DNA of 64,000 bases from a virus. Lineage: Duplodnaviria; Caudoviricetes. Location of the stretch: the IMG/VR virus record IMGVR_UViG_3300043449_001907, positions 1,694 through 65,693 of that record; one strand, 5' to 3'. This document shows positions 482-10,511 of the stretch, piece by piece; the first letter of the stretch is position 1; the number at the start of each line of letters is the position of its first letter. The position numbers were made by a program, and so were the translations under genes. The notes under the pieces were generated by a model. That model had not been told where the DNA came from, made no database searches, and worked only from the letters and a program-made list of their open reading frames with translations.

Positions 482-3400
482 ATGGCCGCACCAATTAATA
501 TCCAAGCAAATGTACAAATTCAAAATCTGTCTCAGTTAGAAAGACAGCTTATGCAAGCCACTGAAGGCTTGAGGAAGGGTATGGCAATGGGCAATAATGC
601 CCGTTCAGTCAAAGCTCTTTCTCAACCTCTTGGTCGTTTAACAGGTCAAGCTGATGAATTCACAAAATCAATGGACGCTGCTAATGCTCGCGTTCTTGCA
701 TTCGGAGCTTCTGTTGGTGTTGTTAATGCCTTTACTAATGCTTTTAAAAGTCTAATTGCTTCGACTATTGAAGTTGAGAAAGCCATTAAAGCAATTACTG
801 TTGTTGGTGATCAATTCGCAGGAAGTACCAAAGAATTAAGTCAAGGATTATTTAATGTTGCGAAATTAACTGGACAAAGTTTTGCTGAAGTTTCTAAAGC
901 TGCTCTTGAATTTTCTCGTCAAGGTTTAAAACTTGAAGATACTCTTCAAAGAACTAAAGACGCTCTGATTCTTACTCGTTTGACTGGATTAGATTCAGCA
1001 AAAGCCGTTGATGGTTTGACTGCTGCTTTTAACGCTTTCTCTAAGGCTGGTATTTCAACTAGCCAAATTTTAAATAAATTAGCGGCTGTTGACCAAGCTT
1101 TTGCTGTTTCTTCCGCTGACCTTATTGAAGGCTTTAACCGAAGTGCTGCTGTTGCTCAAAATGCTGGCATTTCATTTGATGAACTTGCTGGTATTATCAC
1201 TTCCTTACAAACTCAAACATCTAGAGGTGGTGCAGTTATTGGTAACGCCTTAAAAACTATTTTTACAAGAATTCAAGATAAAGACACTCTTGAGAAATTA
1301 GATAGCTTGGGAATTGCTGTTACTGATGTTCAAAATAGAATCTTGCCAGCTAGAAAGATTTTAGAAAATTTAGCAAACGATGTAGAAGGTTTGGGTAAAA
1401 TTACCCAACAAGGCATTTTCGCAGATGTAGCTGGAACTTTCCAAATCAACCAATTGATTTCTTTGGTTGGAGACTTGAATAAACAAAATAGTATTGCTGC
1501 TGATGCTACTAAAAAATCTGCTGGAGCCACTAATGAAGCTTATACTGCTAATGAAAAACTTAATCAGTCGCTTGATGCTATTTTAAATAAAGTTGCTCTT
1601 TCTGGTAAACAGATTGGTTCAATTTTAGGTGATCTTGGAATTGCTGATAATCTTAAAGGTCTTCTTGATGGTTTAAATTCATTTTTGGAATACGCGAGTG
1701 AAACTTTGCAAGGAGATAGTATTGGAGCAAAATTTGCTAAAGGTATTGTAAAAGGCATTGGTTCTATTTTAACTGGCCCTGGAGTTGGTCTTTTTCTTGC
1801 CATTATTGGCAAATTAAGTTATGACCTTATTAAGTTCGGCACTCAAAGTTTAAAAACATTCTTTAATATTGGTCAAGCTGCTAAACAACAACAACAGATT
1901 CAAGAATCTATTGTTCAAACACTCCTTCGCAACCAAAATGTTCTAAGTCAAATTGTAAATACGCAAGGTGGACAAAATGCACAAGCTCAAGCTTTTTTAA
2001 ATATTCTTCGTCAAGAAGAGGAAACTTTACAAAATATTAGAACTCTTGCTGGCGGTATTGCTGCTCCAGTTATTGCTCAAGGTTATAGAACTGGTGATCA
2101 AGGATTACGCCGCCGTTCTGCTGGTGGCTATTTACCAGCGCAAGAAGCGTCAGATGTTCGCCGTGGCGTTGGTGGTGCATCTCCAAGCTCAAAGGTTGTA
2201 GCTATTCCTAATTTCGCATTTGGCGGCGGCAAGCGCGGCACAATGATTGCTAACACTAGCGAATATATCGTTCCCAATTACGCTGGCGGTGGTTCTGCTA
2301 TCTTTAATCAAGACATGGCAAAGACCATGGGATTACCGCCAGGGGCGAAAAAGATTTCTGCTGCTGGTGGATTTATTCCTAATTTTTCTGACAACACTAA
2401 TGCTCAAGACCCTAAAAATGTTAGTGGCAAATATGCTCTACTTGTTAATGACCTTGAGAATCCGAGATTAGGTGAGACAGTTTCTTATAAGCCGAAAGAT
2501 GGAGACAGAGTTTATTATAAAGCAAATATTTATGGCGTTCAAGGAACTAAAAATTTAACAAGCGCAGAACAACTAAACAGATTTCGCTCTGAATTTAGTA
2601 CGGAAGCTTTGACAGCAAAGTATGAAAAATTAGCTTTAGAAGATATAGGAAAATATTCTAATGCAGTTGTAGGCGAACCTATATCTCCAGTAGCGGCGAC
2701 TAAATTAGCTAATAAAGGCTCTGTGCCAAGCTTAGTTGGTTCTATTTTTGAATCAGCGATTATTTCTGCTCTTTCGGACGCTGATTTAATAAATGCTCAA
2801 GCTGAACGCAATCCTAATGCTCCTTTTGATTTTGCATTAGCTGGCAAGAGTAAGCAATTTAATAAATTTTTTGGCATTCCTCAAGGTATTGATTATATTG
2901 AAGCTAAATACAGCGCTAATAGTTCTACAATAGAAAGTTTTGCATCTAAAATTGACAGAATAGAATCTGGAAAATATGTTGAAAAAGAAATAAAACAAAA
3001 AGGCGCAGCGAAAAGACCTTTTTTAATAAGAGATAAAAAAAGCGTTTTAAATGCTTTAGGAAAAACTAGAGGGCCAAGCGAGCGTTTTAATTTTCAAATT
3101 GATAAAGATGCTAAAATTTCACCAGAGGATATTCAAGCCTTAATAAAAGCTGGGGGTATTCAGACAAATGCTTCTAGTGGTTATATTCCAAACTTTGCTA
3201 GTACCGCTCTCCAAGCTGCAATCTCTCGCGAGAGAAGTGCAGGAGTTCCAGCTTCACAAATTTATATTGATAAGAGTCCTGCGCTTCAGTCTTCCGCTAA
3301 CCCAATGGGGTTAATGGTGGCTAATCGCAGAGATGAGCCTGCTGGCGGTTTCCAAGGCATTTCTCGCGCACGCAAGGAAGGTAGAAATCCAAAGACTTAT

Positions 3401-6400
3401 GGTGCGGCTAATGGATTTGTGCCAAATTTCTTTAGCTATTCTCCATTGTCTCCTCGCTACGCTCCCGCTCCCGCTCCCGCTCCTGCTCCTGCTCCCGCTG
3501 CCTCTACCGCTAGCGGAGGTAGTGGTGATGATAGTCCAAAATCATCTGGAGATGCTCTTGCTAAAGTTTTTGCTTTGCAAAGCGCTCTTGTTGGTTTAAC
3601 TGCTGTATTTGAAGAAACTGCTGGCGAAGGCAGTTCATTAACAGAAGGTTTTAAAAAGGTTGGTGGAGTTGTTACTGGTATTCTTAGTGGAGCGACTCTT
3701 CTAAGTGCTGGATTGGGGGGGATAGGAATTGCTCTAGCTGCATTAACTTCTGGTTTTAATGTTGTTAAAGCTCTTTGGCCCAATGCTATTCAGTTAATGT
3801 TAGAATCTTTTGGTGGATTATCTAAAGCAGGCCAAGAAGCTAGCGAAAATTTAAATAAATTTGGAGAAAAAATTGCGTCTGGAGGTGTTTCTCCAGAACA
3901 AGCTCTTGCGGATGCTAAAAAACAAGCTGAAGAAGCTAGGATTAGAATTCAAGCTGCTCGACAAGGAGTATCTACAGAAACTAGCGAAGGAGGTCAAAAA
4001 GACCAAGCTAAACTTGCAAGAGAATTAATTCTTAAACAAGCTCGCGAAAACTTATCTTCGCAAATATATCAAGCAGGAATATTAAAACAAACAGGTACGA
4101 GTACAGAACAGCGATATATACCATCACAGGCTGGTGGATCATATTCCTATTTCAGTACTCCTATTTTTGATATTGCGGAAGCTCAATTTAAAGACTTAAA
4201 CGAAAGTACTCAAAATGTTATTTTTGATATTCTTGAAGAATCTGTATCAACAACTAAAGAAGGTCTTATATCCTTAGCTAAAACAAGAGGATTTAAAGAT
4301 ATTGATCCTAAAAAAATTATTACAGAAAAAGATTTAAATGATTTAAGAACAAAATTATTAATTGATATTGTCGGAGGAAAAAAAGCATCTTCTGTTATCC
4401 AAAAAGCTATTCAAGACGCTACAGATTTAAAAACTGGAAAACTAGATCAAACTAAACTACAAGACCTACTTAGGAAAAGCGAAGATTTTGCAAAAATTCC
4501 AATTGAAAATTTACAAGCTGCTATTAAAGGTATTCCAGCAGTTGAAGATTTATCTCCAGAAAATCAAGTTCGTATTAAACTTGATGACTTTTTGCGTACT
4601 TATAATGATTTTAGTTCTGAAATAGATCGTAGTATAACTGCTACAACTTCATTATTTGAAGGAATCATTGGAAGCCAAGCTTTTTCAGCTTTGAGTGAAC
4701 AGAGACAATCTGAATTAAAAACTCAATTAGATCGTTTTAAATTTACTACATCGTCACAAAAATCTGAAAGAGCATTAGTTTCAGAAGCTCAAAGTTTAGC
4801 AGCTTCTAAAGCAAAAGATTTAGCCGCGACACAGGGAAATCCAGCTTTATTAGCTAAATTGCAAAATCTTGCCACTTCTACTTCCAGTGTAGCAGATATA
4901 CAAAATAACTTTACTGAATTAGCTACAAGCACTTCTTTGGTTGGAAAAGATTTAGAAGATTTTAAAAAAGAACTATCTGGTTTAATTAATAGAACTAAAG
5001 ATTTCCAATCTAGTCGCGATACAGAAAGTAAATTACTAGAATTATCTATCTTAGAGAGAGAAAATGAATTAAATTCTATCAAGTCATTTTATCAAGGTCT
5101 TGACTCTTTCAATAAAGGAATTAGAGAAAAAGAAGCTAAAATTCGTCAAATTGATTTTCAAATCAAAAGCAATCAGCAATTAACTGATTATAGAAAAGAA
5201 ATGGTTAGTTTGACTACTAGCGGTCTTGATGAATATAGATCAAAAACTAGAAATGTTGAAAACCAAGGATTTACTAAAGAACAAGGCTTAATAAAAGAAC
5301 AAGCTGATCTTCAAGCTAAGATAGAGCTTGAAAAAGCCTTATATACTCAAGATAATATTATTGCTTTAAATAGAAACACAGAAGCTTTAGAGACTGCTTA
5401 TAAAGAATTTACGGCAGAATCTATACAAAAGAGAATTGATGCAATATTATTAAAACCAGGCAATACAAATACAAGCGATAAGCAAGAATTAGAATCGTTG
5501 CAAAAGGCAAGAGCAAATCTTATTAATCCTATCGCTAATAATGAATCTCTTAATTCTAGTAATAAACTAACTGAAATCATTAATGCCCCAACTGAGGAAG
5601 TTAGAAAACAACTTTTAGATTCTATACCTAACGAATCTCAACGCAATAATTTAAAACAAGCGTATGAAAATTATACTATTGGTTTATCTATTAATGCTGA
5701 AAGACTTGGTAATGAAGCTGAATTAAAAAAACAAAGTCAAAAGCAAGAAGATGATCTTAATAAAGTTAGAGATTCTTATACTTCAGCTTTAGCCACAGAA
5801 GCTCGACAGATTGAACAGTCATTAAGAAGTCAACCAATGAGCATGGGTCAATATTTGACCGAAAGCAGAAAACGCGAAACTGCTTTAAAAGAAGAGAGCA
5901 TGTCTCCAGAAGCTGTCAGAGAATCTCGTTCTTCTTTCCGTCGAGGCTTTGAAGATTCTATGACTGAAATTGAAGCAAAAACTGCTGATTTTAGAAATGA
6001 AATTGGTCGCGAAATTCCACAACTCTTCTCATCTAATCTTGCTCAGGGACTAAGCGATGCAATCAGTGGTGCAAAATCACTCAAAGATGCTCTTCGCGAT
6101 GCTGCGACTAGTTTCCTTAATGCCCTTACTCAAAAGAATATCGAAAATATTGCTAACCTTTTCACTAGCTCAATTGGCGGAGCCGCAAAAGGTTTCGCTA
6201 GTGGCGGCATGATCTCTGGCGGTTCAGGAACCAAAGACGATGTTCCAGCAATGCTCATGGGTGGCGAATATGTCATCAAAAAATCAGCAGTCAAAAAATA
6301 CGGTTCAAGATTCTTAGACTCCTTAAATAATGGAGGAATCCAAGCTTTTGCTGCGGGTGGAGGAGTCCAATCTGGTGAGGGCGGATTCTATGTCCCTGGC

Positions 6401-7468
6401 GACTTTGGCACTGGTGCAATTACTGGTAAAAATCAATTACTTCAATTTGCTGGTCAAAGCTTCACAGGTGGTCAATATGATCGCATGGGAGGTTTTGGAA
6501 TGAGCGGAGCTTCAATTAGTCTTGAGCCAGAAAGCGCGAGATTAACAGCCGCTGGTCGTGAAAATAGTCCAATTTTTGAACGAGTTCAACAAGCCAAAGA
6601 AGAAGCTTTTAATGTTTACCTGAATCAATTAAAACAAGAAAGCTCTTATCAAGAACAATTAAAGCAAAGAGCAGAAGCGGAAAAAGCTAGAAAAAAACAA
6701 CTTCAAAGAGCAATCATTAGTGCTGTAGTTAGCTCTGCGGTAAGTTATGCTGGCAGCAGCATGGCTGCTGGCGCTAAGAATGCAAATGCCGCTGCCATCG
6801 CTAGTGGTGGAAAATCCAGTTTCATGACAGGATTTAAAGGAGCTTTAACTGGATACAAGGGCCAAGGAGGTCTTGGCAATATTTTTAGCTCTAATGCTTT
6901 AACTTTGAGTTCAGACGCTCAATTTTTTAAATCTATTGGAGTTAGTTCTTCAAAAGACTTGTATAGCGGAAAACTTTCTCCAGAAAATTATGGAAAATTA
7001 TTTAATCAATATCCTAACTTAGGCAAAACTTATAATTTTGATTACAATACTAGAAATTATATACCTTCTGGCAGAGCTTTTGGAGGATTAATTTCTGGCG
7101 GTTCTGGAATGCGCGACGATGTTCCAGCCATGCTTACTGGCGGTGAATTTGTTTTAAATAATCGTGCCACTCGTAAACTCGGAGTTCAGAATCTTAACCG
7201 CCTGAATGCTGGTTCAACAGAGTCTCAGCAAAGTTCTGGCGGCGTTTCTGACGCTCTTATCTCTAAGCTTGACGAACTCATCCAGACCACTCGCGAAAGC
7301 TCCAAAGACAATGTTGTTGTCAATGTCAGCGGAATGGAAACTGGCGGCGAAAAACGCTCTGATGAAAACAAATCCTCTAACGATAAAGAACTTCAAAGAA
7401 AAATTAAAGAAGCAGTACTTGCAGTCATTGCTCAAGAAAAACGACTTGGAGGATCACTAAATAAATGA
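482..7468 (+). CDS. Tail tape measure protein (2328 aa) with internal accessory domains
   Basis: N-terminal phage TMP core (VAKLTGQSFAEV..EFSRQG..SRGGAVIGNALKTIFTRI), Ala/Gly-rich hydrophobic stretches, coiled-coil region, and two C-terminal FA.GG.ISGGSG..DDVPAML.GGE.V motifs typical of TMPs. Confidence 0.93.
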   Translation: MAAPINIQANVQIQNLSQLERQLMQATEGLRKGMAMGNNARSVKALSQPLGRLTGQADEFTKSMDAANARVLAFGASVGVVNAFTNAFKSLIASTIEVEKAIKAITVVGDQFAGSTKELSQGLFNVAKLTGQSFAEVSKAALEFSRQGLKLEDTLQRTKDALILTRLTGLDSAKAVDGLTAAFNAFSKAGISTSQILNKLAAVDQAFAVSSADLIEGFNRSAAVAQNAGISFDELAGIITSLQTQTSRGGAVIGNALKTIFTRIQDKDTLEKLDSLGIAVTDVQNRILPARKILENLANDVEGLGKITQQGIFADVAGTFQINQLISLVGDLNKQNSIAADATKKSAGATNEAYTANEKLNQSLDAILNKVALSGKQIGSILGDLGIADNLKGLLDGLNSFLEYASETLQGDSIGAKFAKGIVKGIGSILTGPGVGLFLAIIGKLSYDLIKFGTQSLKTFFNIGQAAKQQQQIQESIVQTLLRNQNVLSQIVNTQGGQNAQAQAFLNILRQEEETLQNIRTLAGGIAAPVIAQGYRTGDQGLRRRSAGGYLPAQEASDVRRGVGGASPSSKVVAIPNFAFGGGKRGTMIANTSEYIVPNYAGGGSAIFNQDMAKTMGLPPGAKKISAAGGFIPNFSDNTNAQDPKNVSGKYALLVNDLENPRLGETVSYKPKDGDRVYYKANIYGVQGTKNLTSAEQLNRFRSEFSTEALTAKYEKLALEDIGKYSNAVVGEPISPVAATKLANKGSVPSLVGSIFESAIISALSDADLINAQAERNPNAPFDFALAGKSKQFNKFFGIPQGIDYIEAKYSANSSTIESFASKIDRIESGKYVEKEIKQKGAAKRPFLIRDKKSVLNALGKTRGPSERFNFQIDKDAKISPEDIQALIKAGGIQTNASSGYIPNFASTALQAAISRERSAGVPASQIYIDKSPALQSSANPMGLMVANRRDEPAGGFQGISRARKEGRNPKTYGAANGFVPNFFSYSPLSPRYAPAPAPAPAPAPAASTASGGSGDDSPKSSGDALAKVFALQSALVGLTAVFEETAGEGSSLTEGFKKVGGVVTGILSGATLLSAGLGGIGIALAALTSGFNVVKALWPNAIQLMLESFGGLSKAGQEASENLNKFGEKIASGGVSPEQALADAKKQAEEARIRIQAARQGVSTETSEGGQKDQAKLARELILKQARENLSSQIYQAGILKQTGTSTEQRYIPSQAGGSYSYFSTPIFDIAEAQFKDLNESTQNVIFDILEESVSTTKEGLISLAKTRGFKDIDPKKIITEKDLNDLRTKLLIDIVGGKKASSVIQKAIQDATDLKTGKLDQTKLQDLLRKSEDFAKIPIENLQAAIKGIPAVEDLSPENQVRIKLDDFLRTYNDFSSEIDRSITATTSLFEGIIGSQAFSALSEQRQSELKTQLDRFKFTTSSQKSERALVSEAQSLAASKAKDLAATQGNPALLAKLQNLATSTSSVADIQNNFTELATSTSLVGKDLEDFKKELSGLINRTKDFQSSRDTESKLLELSILERENELNSIKSFYQGLDSFNKGIREKEAKIRQIDFQIKSNQQLTDYRKEMVSLTTSGLDEYRSKTRNVENQGFTKEQGLIKEQADLQAKIELEKALYTQDNIIALNRNTEALETAYKEFTAESIQKRIDAILLKPGNTNTSDKQELESLQKARANLINPIANNESLNSSNKLTEIINAPTEEVRKQLLDSIPNESQRNNLKQAYENYTIGLSINAERLGNEAELKKQSQKQEDDLNKVRDSYTSALATEARQIEQSLRSQPMSMGQYLTESRKRETALKEESMSPEAVRESRSSFRRGFEDSMTEIEAKTADFRNEIGREIPQLFSSNLAQGLSDAISGAKSLKDALRDAATSFLNALTQKNIENIANLFTSSIGGAAKGFASGGMISGGSGTKDDVPAMLMGGEYVIKKSAVKKYGSRFLDSLNNGGIQAFAAGGGVQSGEGGFYVPGDFGTGAITGKNQLLQFAGQSFTGGQYDRMGGFGMSGASISLEPESARLTAAGRENSPIFERVQQAKEEAFNVYLNQLKQESSYQEQLKQRAEAEKARKKQLQRAIISAVVSSAVSYAGSSMAAGAKNANAAAIASGGKSSFMTGFKGALTGYKGQGGLGNIFSSNALTLSSDAQFFKSIGVSSSKDLYSGKLSPENYGKLFNQYPNLGKTYNFDYNTRNYIPSGRAFGGLISGGSGMRDDVPAMLTGGEFVLNNRATRKLGVQNLNRLNAGSTESQQSSGGVSDALISKLDELIQTTRESSKDNVVVNVSGMETGGEKRSDENKSSNDKELQRKIKEAVLAVIAQEKRLGGSLNK
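3461..3500 (+). repeat. (Ala-Pro)n linker, GCTCC(C/T) tandem repeat inside the TMP
   Basis: gctcccgctcccgctcctgctcctgctcccgct encodes APAPAPAPAPA. Confidence 0.9.
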
Positions 7469-8268
7469 GTATAGACAGATCAAACTCAGTCCTTCAATAT
7501 GATCAGAGCTTTATTGCTAATGGTTATCAACTTTCTGGAGTAAACTCTGTATCGGTTTCTTACAGTGTTCCTCTTGAAAATGCATTGACTCTCGGCTCTG
7601 TTTTTGGTTATAATTTGAATAATCCGTTTCAGGCAGAAATCACTATTAATAGAACCTGCTTATATCAAGACCCTTTGCTTTCCCTCACTGGAGACTCGCC
7701 CATATCTGGTAGTTTCAAATACAACGGCCTTTCCTATGGCTTTACAAGCGGATACTTATCAAGATACTCAATCAATTGCGGCGTTGGAGAACTACCCTCT
7801 GTGGCTTGCAGCATCACTGTCTATGGAGAGCTAAAACCAAACTTGGAAGTTCTTCCTTCTCAAACTCATGGGGCTATTTTTATTCCTAGCCCAAGATCAA
7901 TCTCTGTTTCAGGAGACAATACTTCTACAAATAGAGTCAAGGGATTCTCTTATGAGCTTCAAATTAATCGTCAGGCTAACTTTTCAATTGATAGTTATCA
8001 GTCTGTTGATGAGGTAGTATTTTTGCCACCAATTAATGTTTCAGCCTCTCTCGACTTTGATGCTGTGAACTTTACACCAGAAAATTACGAATATTTTATC
8101 TCCTCAAGAGAAAAGAAGACATTTAATATTACTATTAATGATAGAGCTTCTAACAATAATATTTTTAATTTAAATATTCCGAATATTGAGTTAGTGTCTC
8201 AGTCTTTAGATAGTAATGCGGATAATAAACTATCCATTACAAACAATTATATAGGATACCTTGAATGA
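7465..8268 (+). CDS. Tail protein, probable tail-tube-like fold
   Basis: Directly follows the TMP with an ATGA overlap; beta-rich, with two similar halves (GVNSVSVSYS..; RVKGFSYELQINR..PPINVSASLDF). Confidence 0.55.
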   Translation: MSIDRSNSVLQYDQSFIANGYQLSGVNSVSVSYSVPLENALTLGSVFGYNLNNPFQAEITINRTCLYQDPLLSLTGDSPISGSFKYNGLSYGFTSGYLSRYSINCGVGELPSVACSITVYGELKPNLEVLPSQTHGAIFIPSPRSISVSGDNTSTNRVKGFSYELQINRQANFSIDSYQSVDEVVFLPPINVSASLDFDAVNFTPENYEYFISSREKKTFNITINDRASNNNIFNLNIPNIELVSQSLDSNADNKLSITNNYIGYLE

Positions 8269-10511
8269 GTTTATTTTATAACAGAGATAGAAACATAACA
8301 GGCGTTGAGCAAATCACCTCAATGTTTACGATTAATCCTAACTATGGATCAACAGTTTCTTTTGTTTGTAAAAATAATAGGGTAGATTATAATAGTAATA
8401 CTTTCTCAATCATGCCTTCGACGCTTAATAACGTCACGGCAAATTGCTCTTTTAACTTTACAACAAATGAGGCTCAGGCTAAAAAAATAGTTAACTTCTT
8501 TGAGAGTCAAAGCGGCACTGGATATTTTGGCATTGCAGATTCTTCATTAATTTATCAGACACTATATGGTTTTGCAAATGGTTTTGATATTTCAATGGAT
8601 CACAATAACTTGTACAATATCTCATTGAATTTTAGCGTCGAAAGAAACGCCAGCGTGCTTGATTGGAGCGGCATGAGTTTTGTGAACTACTTATTTGAAG
8701 AGTGGCAAACTGATAAAGCTTATAGTAAATATCAACCAGTCTATTTTGAAACACAAAAAGACAACTTGATTAAAAACTTCTTTTATGCGAAAGAAAGTCA
8801 TACCAGTTCTTTAGATAAAGCTCCAACTAATGAAAATTATTGGACTCAAGAATTTTTCTTTGAAGATGATCTTGGTTTAAAAGTTGATACTGAACCAACT
8901 ATTGACTTCTTAAATTTTAAGAATTCTTTTCCTCAAAGAATCAAAAGTCAAGACAATATTCATACTTTTAGAAAATTAGAATTAGGTTTTAAAAATTTGA
9001 GCGATTTTAAGCTCAAGTCAATGCTTCATTTCTTAGAGAGTCATCTTGGCTATCTTAAGTTTCAATTTAATTTGCCAAAAATTTACGACCGTCCAAAAAT
9101 CTTTTATGCTGAATCTTGGACTCATACTTGGAACTATAAAGATTCTCATAATTTAACCGTTACATTGGCAGAAGACCCGCTTGGAATCTTAAATCAGGTT
9201 GATTCTCCAGACGTATCTTTATTTCAAAATTCTGACCAATCTTTTATTAGTTTAAATGCTTCGGCAGAAGATGGTATTTTTCTTGTTGATTTTACTGGCA
9301 AAAAACAAGCAGTTCAAAACGGCCTTTTCTCAGGAAATTGGGGAACTTCACCAATACGAACAACAAAGCTTTATCAGCAACTAAATTCTATTTCCTGCAC
9401 TGGACAGAATTTAAAAAAACTTTCATTTGGTTCTAGAGTTGAACTAAAAACTGGCGTTTTTTCTCAGAACAATATAAATGAAGTTAATTTCAACAGCGCG
9501 AAAAACATTGAATATTTAAACTTAAGTGGCAACTCAATTGAGAACTTCTCATGTTTAAATGTTACTGGTCTTCAATATATAAACTTAAATAGTAACACTG
9601 TTTTAACTGGCGCAAATTTCTCTGGATGCAATAACTTAACTGGAGTATTTATTCAAAAGACTGGAAATGTTATCTCTCAATCTTCTCTTGGTACTATTCT
9701 AAATGGTGTTGGTGATGGCGATGGTATTTCTGGCACGATTCGATGCTCAGGAATTGTTTCTGGCAGTTCTTCATTATTGTCTAAAGTATCAAACTTAGAT
9801 TATAGAAAATGGACTCAAGAATACAGTGGATTGAGTTTACCAATGAATCCAAGTTCTTATTCAAATGGAGCTAATGTTTTTTGGTATGAAAATAGTCAAG
9901 CTCTTGAAACTGGTGAATCTTATTTCTTAAAATGGTATTCTTCAAAACAAGAGAATACACTTGTTCAAACTTATACTCCCAACTCTCCAGATTGGTTCGC
10001 TCCAGTTCAATTTCAAATTGGTCAAAGAACAGCTTTTAATTTTAAAAATACATATCTAACAGGAACAGGAATAAATAATTCAGCCGACTTTTTAGCAGTG
10101 TTTTCTGTATTGAGTTTATCTAGTAGCGATTATCAATGTATTGCTAATTTTTCAGATACTAAAAAATATGGACTCTTTGCTAGTGGCGCATGTTTATATT
10201 TCATTAATGGAACAGAGCTTAGTCAAATTTCAAGCACTTTGGATTTAAATTCTTACTATTCTGTTGGTTTCGTTAGAAACTCCACTCACTTTACTGGTTT
10301 CATTAATGGGTCTGGCTCAAATACTGGAAATCTTTCAGCGAGTAGTTTATTTTCAATTAAACCTTCTGTGGGGGCTTCTTATTTACAGAATGACTTTTTC
10401 AATGGCAAGATTGCAGAACTTTTAGTTTATAGTAAAAACTCAGAACCTTATCTCACAAACACTGGAGAACTTAATTTTCTTTTCAATTCAAAATTCGGAA
10501 TCGTTGTATGA
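8265..10511 (+). CDS. Minor tail protein: gpM-like domain(s), CBM5/12-like insert, LRR-like segment and C-terminal LamG/ConA-like domain
   Basis: KFQFNLPKIY..KIFYAESWTHTWNYKDSHNLTVTLAED resembles lambda gpM; LxxLNLSGNxI repeats; C-terminal FNGKIAELLVYS is LamG-like. Confidence 0.6.
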   Translation: MSLFYNRDRNITGVEQITSMFTINPNYGSTVSFVCKNNRVDYNSNTFSIMPSTLNNVTANCSFNFTTNEAQAKKIVNFFESQSGTGYFGIADSSLIYQTLYGFANGFDISMDHNNLYNISLNFSVERNASVLDWSGMSFVNYLFEEWQTDKAYSKYQPVYFETQKDNLIKNFFYAKESHTSSLDKAPTNENYWTQEFFFEDDLGLKVDTEPTIDFLNFKNSFPQRIKSQDNIHTFRKLELGFKNLSDFKLKSMLHFLESHLGYLKFQFNLPKIYDRPKIFYAESWTHTWNYKDSHNLTVTLAEDPLGILNQVDSPDVSLFQNSDQSFISLNASAEDGIFLVDFTGKKQAVQNGLFSGNWGTSPIRTTKLYQQLNSISCTGQNLKKLSFGSRVELKTGVFSQNNINEVNFNSAKNIEYLNLSGNSIENFSCLNVTGLQYINLNSNTVLTGANFSGCNNLTGVFIQKTGNVISQSSLGTILNGVGDGDGISGTIRCSGIVSGSSSLLSKVSNLDYRKWTQEYSGLSLPMNPSSYSNGANVFWYENSQALETGESYFLKWYSSKQENTLVQTYTPNSPDWFAPVQFQIGQRTAFNFKNTYLTGTGINNSADFLAVFSVLSLSSSDYQCIANFSDTKKYGLFASGACLYFINGTELSQISSTLDLNSYYSVGFVRNSTHFTGFINGSGSNTGNLSASSLFSIKPSVGASYLQNDFFNGKIAELLVYSKNSEPYLTNTGELNFLFNSKFGIVV

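Follow-up and report, generated by a model that had tools for sequence, protein, structure and literature searches.

The module of a phage tape measure protein (TMP) that had previously been described as a swapped-in nuclease cassette is the constant core of a TMP module array found across a clade of large, uncultured, aquatic siphovirus-like phages. We examined this core module (positions 2387–3169, aa 636–896), which lies between the first two of a series of short PNF peptides, in a 64,000-nt stretch of viral DNA (hereafter the window). A core-module HMM recognised it in 122 of 124 related TMPs and at 80 of 81 IMG/VR loci, and its most conserved positions are charged residues arranged in the order of a PD-(D/E)xK active site. 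The explanation that we tentatively favour, at somewhat less than an even chance, is that of a divergent restriction-endonuclease-like module set in a constant TMP array, with the PNF peptides serving both as functional motifs and as joints. IMG/VR contributes 343 stretches to this clade; among MAG contigs, only two, from Verrucomicrobiales and Neomarinimicrobiota bins, carry the TMP, and host assignment failed.

The tape measure protein and its module array

The array is part of a single open frame encoding 2328 aa (positions 482–7468; this frame and all the TMP features described here are on the plus strand). Its PhageMin_Tail domain (PF10145; 869–1435, aa 130–318; Pfam E 7e-29, 101.6 bits against a cut-off of 33.2) identifies it as a TP901-type TMP. 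Several TMP PHROGs also match this frame, and more than 1400 homologous TMPs are present in the databases. The downstream ORF at 8265–10511 gave a weak Phage_min_tail match that fell under the cut-off. Two DDVPAMLxGGE[FY]V repeats were located by a regular expression on the translation (6236–6274, aa 1919–1931 and 7115–7153, aa 2212–2224), and it is at these repeats that phrog_35029 and phrog_13338 each match the TMP twice. An (Ala-Pro)n linker (3461–3499, aa 994–1006) was also seen in the translation. No recognisable muralytic domain was detected in the window's TMP by Pfam scan.

Hydropathy analysis (Kyte-Doolittle, 19-residue window) recovered both hydrophobic stretches that had been said to bracket the segment, the first at 1742–1822 (aa 421–447, peak 1.72) and the second at 3551–3778 (aa 1024–1099), where two segments were resolved (aa 1024–1044 and 1060–1099, peaks 1.74 and 1.77). 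Between these membrane-type segments the TMP is laid out as beads on a string: N-flank repeat, core module and C-flank repeat follow one another, each closed by a PNF peptide. The N-flank module (2117–2386, aa 546–635) begins with a degenerate SAGGYLP (2117) and ends with SAAGGFIPNF (2357–2386), and the C-flank module (3170–3430, aa 897–983) begins with ASSGYIPNF (3170–3196) and ends with AANGFVPNF (3404–3430). All of these motifs were thus found where the preliminary description had placed them; it had overlooked two extra PN[FY] copies inside the N-flank, AIPNFAF at 2201 and IVPNY at 2267. The pattern [FYIVL][IVL]PN[FY] occurs four times in the TMP against 0.012 expected from 5000 shuffles; a search of the window in all six frames found it at one other place. 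From 672 instances we derived the consensus A-[AS]-x-G-[FY]-[IV]-P-N-[FY]-A. The PNF stretches were modelled by AlphaFold with pLDDT below 50, as opposed to 75–95 for the modules, and the peptide is predicted to be a disordered linker.

The two flank modules had been proposed to be repeats of each other, and both BLASTP (38% identity over 50 aa, E 0.001) and hhalign (probability 75%, E 2e-5) bear this out, the repeats being diverged. The N-flank, modelled as beta strands (pLDDT 84–90), is the best-conserved piece of the TMP, with 60–97% identity in about 120 TMPs, and exceeds the core module in this respect; the C-flank is 55–94% identical among relatives. Since the flank protein is 90–97% identical while synonymous sites are saturated, we concluded that the flanks are under purifying selection. 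A tblastn search of 50,697 cultured phage records with the N-flank returned no match. Among shorter proteins containing the N-flank, many of them on short contigs, those with a name or Pfam label were TMPs and the others were unlabelled. Our literature search retrieved no paper on the PNF motif in TMPs, nor any describing a PNF-fenced TMP module system.

Conserved charged residues of the core module

The core module comprises a three-stranded beta sub-domain (2432–2536, aa 651–685; pLDDT 80–93 in AlphaFold on alignment A3) kept in closer relatives only, a conserved core with the nuclease-like residues (2648–3016, aa 723–845), and a C-terminal alpha/beta sub-domain (2996–3169, aa 839–896). Within the conserved core, E757 (2750–2752) lies in GSIFESAI (2738), D783 (2828–2830) in PFDF (2822) and E807-x-K809 (2900–2908) in IEAKY (2897), giving a spacing of E-26-D-24-ExK. 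The 43–51 TMPs aligned share only 20–30% identity in this domain, and E757, D783 and K809 are the sole invariant columns of the core module in alignment A3 (43 sequences). In alignment A4 (51 sequences), D783 and K809 are invariant and E757 is conserved in at least 90%; in a few members it is replaced by Q or D, which we count against a nuclease. The E807 position is E or D among the alignment rows printed, and the hydrophobic surroundings of the conserved E, D and K vary among relatives. The E..D..(D/E)xK order noticed in the preliminary description therefore holds up well, since it is made of the most conserved core-module positions among very divergent relatives.

The accompanying claim of PD-(D/E)xK nuclease identity stands as regards this residue order, but significant family similarity and a fold match were not obtained. 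Comparison of the 262-aa module with Pfam, PHROGs and PDB sequences gave nothing meaningful. Scans of all 51 members against Pfam (E up to 10) and PHROGs (E up to 1) revealed no recurrent family, and no PDDEXK-clan family recurred in the Pfam scans, a single member showing an isolated match to Dna2 (E 0.065). With genome-derived alignments of Mrr_cat, Mrr_cat_2 and YraN as targets, hhalign gave non-significant probabilities of 0.2%, 0.1% and 0.9%, respectively; the control of Mrr_cat against YraN reached only 54%, which makes this a weak test within the PD-(D/E)xK superfamily. In permissive, likewise non-significant, hhalign alignments the E, D and ExK of the core module fall on the FE, D and QxK of Mrr_cat and on the GE, D and EVK of YraN. 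Among the ESM-Atlas neighbours of the core, the top named ones all belong to PD-(D/E)xK families (Mrr_cat_2, Mrr_cat, MunI, Hjc, PDDEXK_3, PDDEXK_14 and Tox-REase-7) with scores of 0.83–0.85; scores below 0.9 are leads only, and ten matches to one clan were also returned by a third of shuffled proteins. Two other candidates were rejected: a similarity to hemopexin-type plant lectins, found with the 51-core profile among PDB sequences (whole-sequence E 0.002), was judged to be due to chance (domain E of about 0.5, over 'G-T-[IV]-FE'), and a pol-beta nucleotidyltransferase-like 'GS-x12-DxD' at aa 753–769 was dismissed as its DxD is not conserved.

The AlphaFold model on alignment A3 (pLDDT 75) consists mostly of helices with two short strands in the core; D783 and E807 fall at these strands, E757 falls within a helix, and the remainder is helical. 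The expected first strand of the restriction-endonuclease fold was modelled as a helix, with low confidence. Searches of this model with Foldseek, a check proposed in the preliminary description, and with VIA yielded no restriction-endonuclease match among the matches listed. A single-sequence AlphaFold model (pLDDT 40) was discarded.

A HMMER scan of 1.84 billion representatives with the 262-aa module gave nine matches, the full-length ones being TMP-sized. All significant relatives found for the core module are in TMPs or TMP-sized proteins, bar one 184-aa protein of unknown context, which was also the only free-standing small protein with the core that a search for such proteins returned. 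No match was found by tblastn with the core module in the cultured phage records searched above. Toxin and effector nucleases usually have relatives in other settings, and the absence of any outside TMPs counts against the nuclease reading.

In the explanation that we tentatively favour, the core module would be a very divergent metal-dependent phosphodiesterase (Mrr/YraN/Hjc-like), or a nucleic-acid-binding derivative of one. Its first helix would bear E757, and two successive strands D783 and E807-x-K809, respectively. Riding in the tail lumen within the TMP, it would exit the virion with the TMP just before the DNA and act on nucleic acid at the entry site, where the hydrophobic segments on either side would hold it close to the membrane. 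The PNF peptides may be functional short linear motifs, as cleavage or docking sites, and they are also where modules are gained and lost in evolution. Against the explanation, a tail tube offers little room for a folded domain of 260 aa.

The rival that survives best, to which we give only slightly less weight, treats the core module as a non-catalytic domain peculiar to TMPs, with a part in structure or assembly. Such a domain might pack the lumen, contact the tube or an assembly chaperone, or form part of a membrane channel, and its E, D, E and K would make up a buried salt-bridge or metal site that mimics a nuclease signature. The confinement of the module and its flanks to TMPs, its constancy in the array and the missing nuclease fold or family match all fit such a role, as does the stronger conservation of the flank repeats, which is what assembly contacts should show. 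What speaks for the nuclease-like alternative instead is that the three invariant positions are charged residues in PD-(D/E)xK order and spacing while the hydrophobic core varies, that P-loop modules accompany the core module in many relatives, and that nuclease families make up all of the top named language-model neighbours.

Accessory modules and the proposed exchange at the flanks

In the 124 relatives, the slots between the flanks measure 222–1523 aa and contain one to six modules each. Splitting the slots at internal PNF motifs gave 22 module clusters, or 21 excluding that of the core module, and at least 20 accessory module families vary. Relatives add one to five further modules, each of which ends in its own copy of the consensus decapeptide. 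Two of them, P0002 and P0017, differ from the window's TMP by exactly one 'module + PNF' unit, and this unit carries the Walker A motif GPAGSGKST; some of the accessory modules are P-loop modules. A Pfam scan of three multi-module relatives identified no recognisable enzyme in their accessory modules. We think it unlikely, but worth stating, that the PNF-fenced array is a general cargo bay in which processing at the PNF peptides, for example autocatalytic cleavage at the invariant Asn or cutting by a protease from virion or host, would free the nuclease-like, P-loop and some 20 orphan kinds of module as ready enzymes inside the host.

The preliminary description had proposed a variable interval between conserved PNF flanks, occupied by a foreign polymorphic effector nuclease that is swapped at the repeats and released by cleavage there. 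Its first part is correct in that whole modules are gained and lost exactly at the PNF peptide, itself a conserved linker modelled as disordered, but the core module is not the variable part: it is a constant member of the array at the frequencies given above. A polymorphic effector would vary in close relatives and be shared with other delivery systems; the core module is constant and, bar the 184-aa protein, restricted to TMPs, and no relatives were found in other toxin systems. The reported GC contrast is real (0.46–0.49 in the flanks, 0.34 in the core module) but does not indicate a foreign cassette, since the GC of the core module equals that of the rest of the TMP gene and of the window (0.354) and it is the flanks that are odd. 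Their high GC reflects an abundance of Gly, Ala, Pro and Arg residues; at third positions, GC is only marginally off expectation (z +1.9, +1.4, -2.7). Raised synonymous-site identity was not found in the flanks, which thus show no sign of recent DNA exchange, and the PNF copies use different codons; recent recombination at the repeats is not borne out. Taken as a whole, the foreign-cassette proposal appears very unlikely.

Muralytic domains are common in TMPs, and the 'FES' after Gly in the core module presumably bears a loose likeness to the Glu-Ser of lytic transglycosylases. Relatives carry lysozyme, SLT, GH19 and, by precomputed Pfam labels, VanY domains that have no recognisable counterpart in the window's TMP. 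A role for the core module in hydrolysing a substrate other than nucleic acid during entry, for instance lipid or cell wall, from a periplasmic position between the membrane-inserting segments, is nevertheless very unlikely: in relatives, the lysozyme, SLT and GH19 domains occupy a different place (aa ~1840–2080) in proteins that keep the core module alongside, the Ser after the Glu is not conserved, and no glycosidase or peptidase family was matched. The muralytic domains are located neither inside the PNF slot nor between the DDVPAML repeats, both of which had been considered as their place.

Significance and comparison with known systems

TMPs are usually regarded as helical rulers, some of which have a motif that degrades the cell wall. 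In this widespread clade, the TMP carries a string of small folded modules separated by strictly conserved ten-residue peptides. If these modules are delivered and active, the tails would bring ready enzymes, in a variable assortment, into the cell before the genome, which would bear on how phages overcome early host defences; the array would then also be a scaffold of natural origin on which proteins could be loaded into tails. Were the cargo-bay idea true, phages would have their own version of polymorphic effector delivery as part of the TMP. Even without a nuclease role, a disordered decapeptide and the two flank repeats are the best conserved of 2300 residues, for a reason that is testable, as is the question of how a tail tube accommodates folded domains.

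The core module resembles PD-(D/E)xK enzymes such as Mrr_cat (PF04471), YraN/UPF0102 (PF02021) and Hjc in the order and spacing of its motifs: a helical Glu preceded by a Gly, an Asp with hydrophobic neighbours, and then a hydrophobic (D/E)-x-K. It differs from them in showing no significant sequence or profile similarity, in a fold that was not recovered from the model, and in being embedded in a TMP with no free-standing relatives.

A precedent for enzymes riding on a TMP is gp96 of Thermus phage P23-45, a giant TMP fused to a virion RNA polymerase, so that a cytoplasm-acting enzyme is borne on the same polypeptide (Chaban et al. 2024, PMC10770324). That protein is a single N-terminal fusion of known fold and proven activity, whereas here there is an internal, peptide-fenced array of small orphan modules. 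Embedded accessory domains are also known from TMPs with wall hydrolase domains, such as the Mt3 cell-wall hydrolase motif of mycobacteriophage TM4 (Piuri and Hatfull 2006, as cited in PMC13277306), and occur in relatives of the window's TMP; these are of known families, target the wall and occupy a different region of the protein, in contrast to the orphan core module.

Polyvalent proteins combine many unrelated domains in one polypeptide thought to enter the host with the DNA, and proteolytic processing has been proposed for them too (Iyer et al. 2017, PMC5512222); tape measure proteins are mentioned zero times in that paper. Their domains are mostly recognisable enzymes common to other systems, and no repeated fencing peptide is described, whereas the TMPs studied here hold one to six mostly orphan modules. 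The window's TMP has a single orphan module, and its relatives have up to six, P-loop modules included.

The tape measure gene and its PNF array

The array lies within one 6987-nt ORF (482-7468, + strand) with a 2328-aa product. This product matched PF10145 (PhageMin_Tail) of Pfam at aa 130-318 (E 7e-29) and gave fifteen PHROGs matches at E ≤0.1, eleven of which, including all the strongest, are annotated as tape measure protein (TMP); on the basis of these matches we assign it as a TP901-type TMP. Ribonucleotide reductase, a DnaE-type polymerase, a ClpB-like ATPase and tail proteins are among the other genes of the window, which belongs to a large phage genome.

Two flank modules, the N-flank (aa 546-635, 2117..2386) and the C-flank (aa 897-983, 3170..3430), enclose a slot that is occupied here by a single core module (aa 636-896, 2387..3169). 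The flank motifs were found where the preliminary description had placed them, namely SAGGYLP at 2117, SAAGGFIPNF (PNF1) at 2357-2386, ASSGYIPNF at 3170-3196 and AANGFVPNF at 3404-3430, together with two PN[FY] copies that it had overlooked, AIPNFAF at 2201 and IVPNY at 2267. Within the TMP the PNF pentapeptide pattern is present four times (0.012 expected from shuffles), with one further occurrence outside it across the six frames of the window. The flanks were also recovered as diverged repeats of one another (BLASTP E 0.001; hhalign probability 75%, E 2e-5), and the proposed hydrophobic stretches on either side of the array were located at aa 421-447 and aa 1024-1099. An (Ala-Pro)6 tract (3461-3499) follows the last PNF motif just ahead of the second hydrophobic region. 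A second duplicated module of the TMP, DDVPAMLxGGE[FY]V, is present at 6236-6274 and 7115-7153; its copies are 293 aa apart in the window and 196-440 aa apart in 54 relatives, and the stretch between the two window copies showed no family match.

As the preliminary description had anticipated, the interval between PNF motifs varies among related TMPs while the flanks are conserved. The slot ranges from 222 to 1523 aa, and internal copies of the PNF peptide split it into modules some 80-520 aa long. When clustered, the 250 modules fell into 22 clusters, the one containing the core and 21 others. Slots hold one to six modules in many different arrangements, the commonest being the single module seen in the window (46 of 124 TMPs). 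The PNF consensus from 672 instances was A-[AS]-x-G-[FY]-[IV]-P-N-[FY]-A, in which the Pro and Asn were set by the search pattern and their invariance is no independent result. P0002 and P0017, two of the closer relatives, differ from the window TMP by exactly one extra "module + PNF" unit directly after PNF1. The extra unit bears a Walker A motif, GPAGSGKST, and matches many P-loop families weakly, below threshold; in several dozen of the 124 TMPs, Walker-A modules adjoin the core. Together, these comparisons show that modules are gained and lost at the PNF peptide.

Distribution and conservation of the region

When 8000 candidates were scored in a protein search with aa 540-990, at least 1453 proteins matched at E 0.001 or better; those that have a source name are called TMPs, and PF10145 is present in nearly all of the matches listed. 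A scan of IMG/VR gave 343 stretches. Neither the core module nor a flank was found in any cultured phage record searched, and matches in prokaryote genomes were limited to two metagenome-assembled genome (MAG) contigs. These two contigs, CALFSW010000038.1 and JAYPYG010000004.1, come from bins labelled Verrucomicrobiales and Neomarinimicrobiota, and source names of other relatives mention Nanopelagicales and Flavobacteriaceae MAGs. Such labels are weak clues to the host, as the phage contigs may have been mis-binned. The TMP clade is aquatic and uncultured.

Identity to the window TMP was 60-97% in the N-flank and 55-94% in the C-flank, about 70-78% over the N-terminal 540 aa in closer relatives, and mostly 23-28% past aa 1000, with one locus at 48%. 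Judged by these identities, the most constrained part of the TMP is the flank repeats and not the ruler part. Comparing 2099-3451 with 3452-5680, the N-flank was 90-97% identical even where identity past aa 1000 was only 23-28%. Synonymous codon identity was about 0.5-0.7 everywhere, with no excess in the flanks, and the PNF copies are encoded by different codons. That the flanks are so strongly conserved as protein therefore reflects purifying selection and not recent DNA exchange.

The core domain is confined to TMPs: its significant relatives all reside in TMPs or TMP-sized proteins, and a profile search of proteins of 66-268 aa returned one 184-aa protein with the core. Shorter proteins with the N-flank are TMPs where named or Pfam-labelled; many of them lie on short contigs, and TARA and GOS marine samples are the source of several.

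A candidate nuclease and its alternatives

The core module had been described as a PD-(D/E)xK nuclease-like cassette, and the motifs on which this was based are present as reported (GSIFESAI at 2738, PFDF at 2822 and IEAKY at 2897). In a 43-sequence whole-TMP alignment, E757, D783 and K809 are the sole invariant columns of the module, the Glu position of ExK being E or D across the rows listed. A 51-sequence alignment of the conserved core (aa 723-845), with identities of 17-30% except for six closer relatives, kept the D and K invariant and the E in at least 90%. The context, G-x-[IV]-[FY]-E on a helix, a D between hydrophobic residues and then hydrophobic [ED]-x-K, with E-26-D-24-E spacing, fits PD-(D/E)xK. 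Under permissive realignment with hhalign, the three core motifs fall opposite FE / D / QxK in Mrr_cat and GE / D / EVK in YraN. The top named ESM-Atlas neighbours all belong to the restriction-endonuclease clan (Mrr_cat_2, Mrr_cat, MunI, Hjc, PDDEXK_3, PDDEXK_14 and Tox-REase-7), at scores of 0.83-0.85, which by the tool's own rating are leads only.

Sequence and profile searches of Pfam, PHROGs and PDB found no nuclease family for the core or module, and hhalign probabilities against nuclease families were 0.1-0.9%, in a test of little power within this superfamily, where the true families Mrr_cat and YraN reached only 54% as positive control. An AlphaFold model from the 43 sequences (mean pLDDT 75) divides the module into a beta sub-domain of three strands, a helical hairpin, a core in which D783 and E807 fall at short strands, and an alpha/beta sub-domain at the C-terminus; the stretch expected to form the first strand was modelled as helix at the lowest pLDDT of the module (62-63). 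What supports the nuclease reading is thus the residue pattern, its spacing and the language-model neighbours, not homology or fold. A borderline profile match to hemopexin-fold plant lectins (whole-sequence E 0.002) over 2717-2776, at G-[ST]-[IV]-F-E-x-[AG]-[IL], was judged a chance resemblance to the blade motif.

The array with its joints, the invariant residues, the flanking hydrophobic segments and the restriction of the domain to TMPs are established. We tentatively propose, at somewhat short of an even chance, that the core is a highly diverged phosphodiesterase of the PD-(D/E)xK type, or a derivative of one that binds nucleic acid. The core would exit the virion together with the TMP, before the DNA, and act at the entry site, and the PNF peptides, conserved yet disordered, would serve as processing or docking sites. 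Only slightly less probable is a non-catalytic, TMP-specific structural domain.

That the core is a foreign cassette, as first suggested, is improbable, and a swapped-in origin does not hold for this module. An HMM of the conserved core detected it in 122 of 124 TMP proteins and in 80 of 81 IMG/VR loci, the sole exception being truncated. The GC contrast offered for this view is real, and its direction had been misread: the module (0.342) has the same GC as the window (0.354) and the remaining TMP, and it is the flanks that are unusual (0.46-0.49), owing to their high content of Gly, Ala, Pro and Arg. At third positions, GC departed only marginally from expectation. Swapping in does describe the accessory modules of relatives. 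The original observation stands, and its interpretation is supported in part. A hydrolase of a non-nucleic-acid substrate is also unlikely.

Comparison with known systems

A literature search found no papers on the PNF motif in TMPs. Polyvalent proteins likewise join many domains in one delivered polypeptide, in a paper that never mentions tape measure proteins (PMC5512222). Relatives in the clade, P0026 and P0072 among them, carry muralytic domains (lysozyme, SLT and GH19, plus VanY by precomputed Pfam labels), and the window TMP has no recognisable one. In P0080, P0095 and P0099, lysozyme, SLT or GH19 lies at aa about 1840-2080, outside the PNF array and upstream of the first DDVPAML repeat. 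Enzymes embedded in TMPs have precedents: gp96 of P23-45 carries the virion RNA polymerase (PMC10770324), and the TM4 TMP is cited as having a peptidoglycan-hydrolase motif (in PMC13277306). The window TMP is a further TMP carrying accessory domains.
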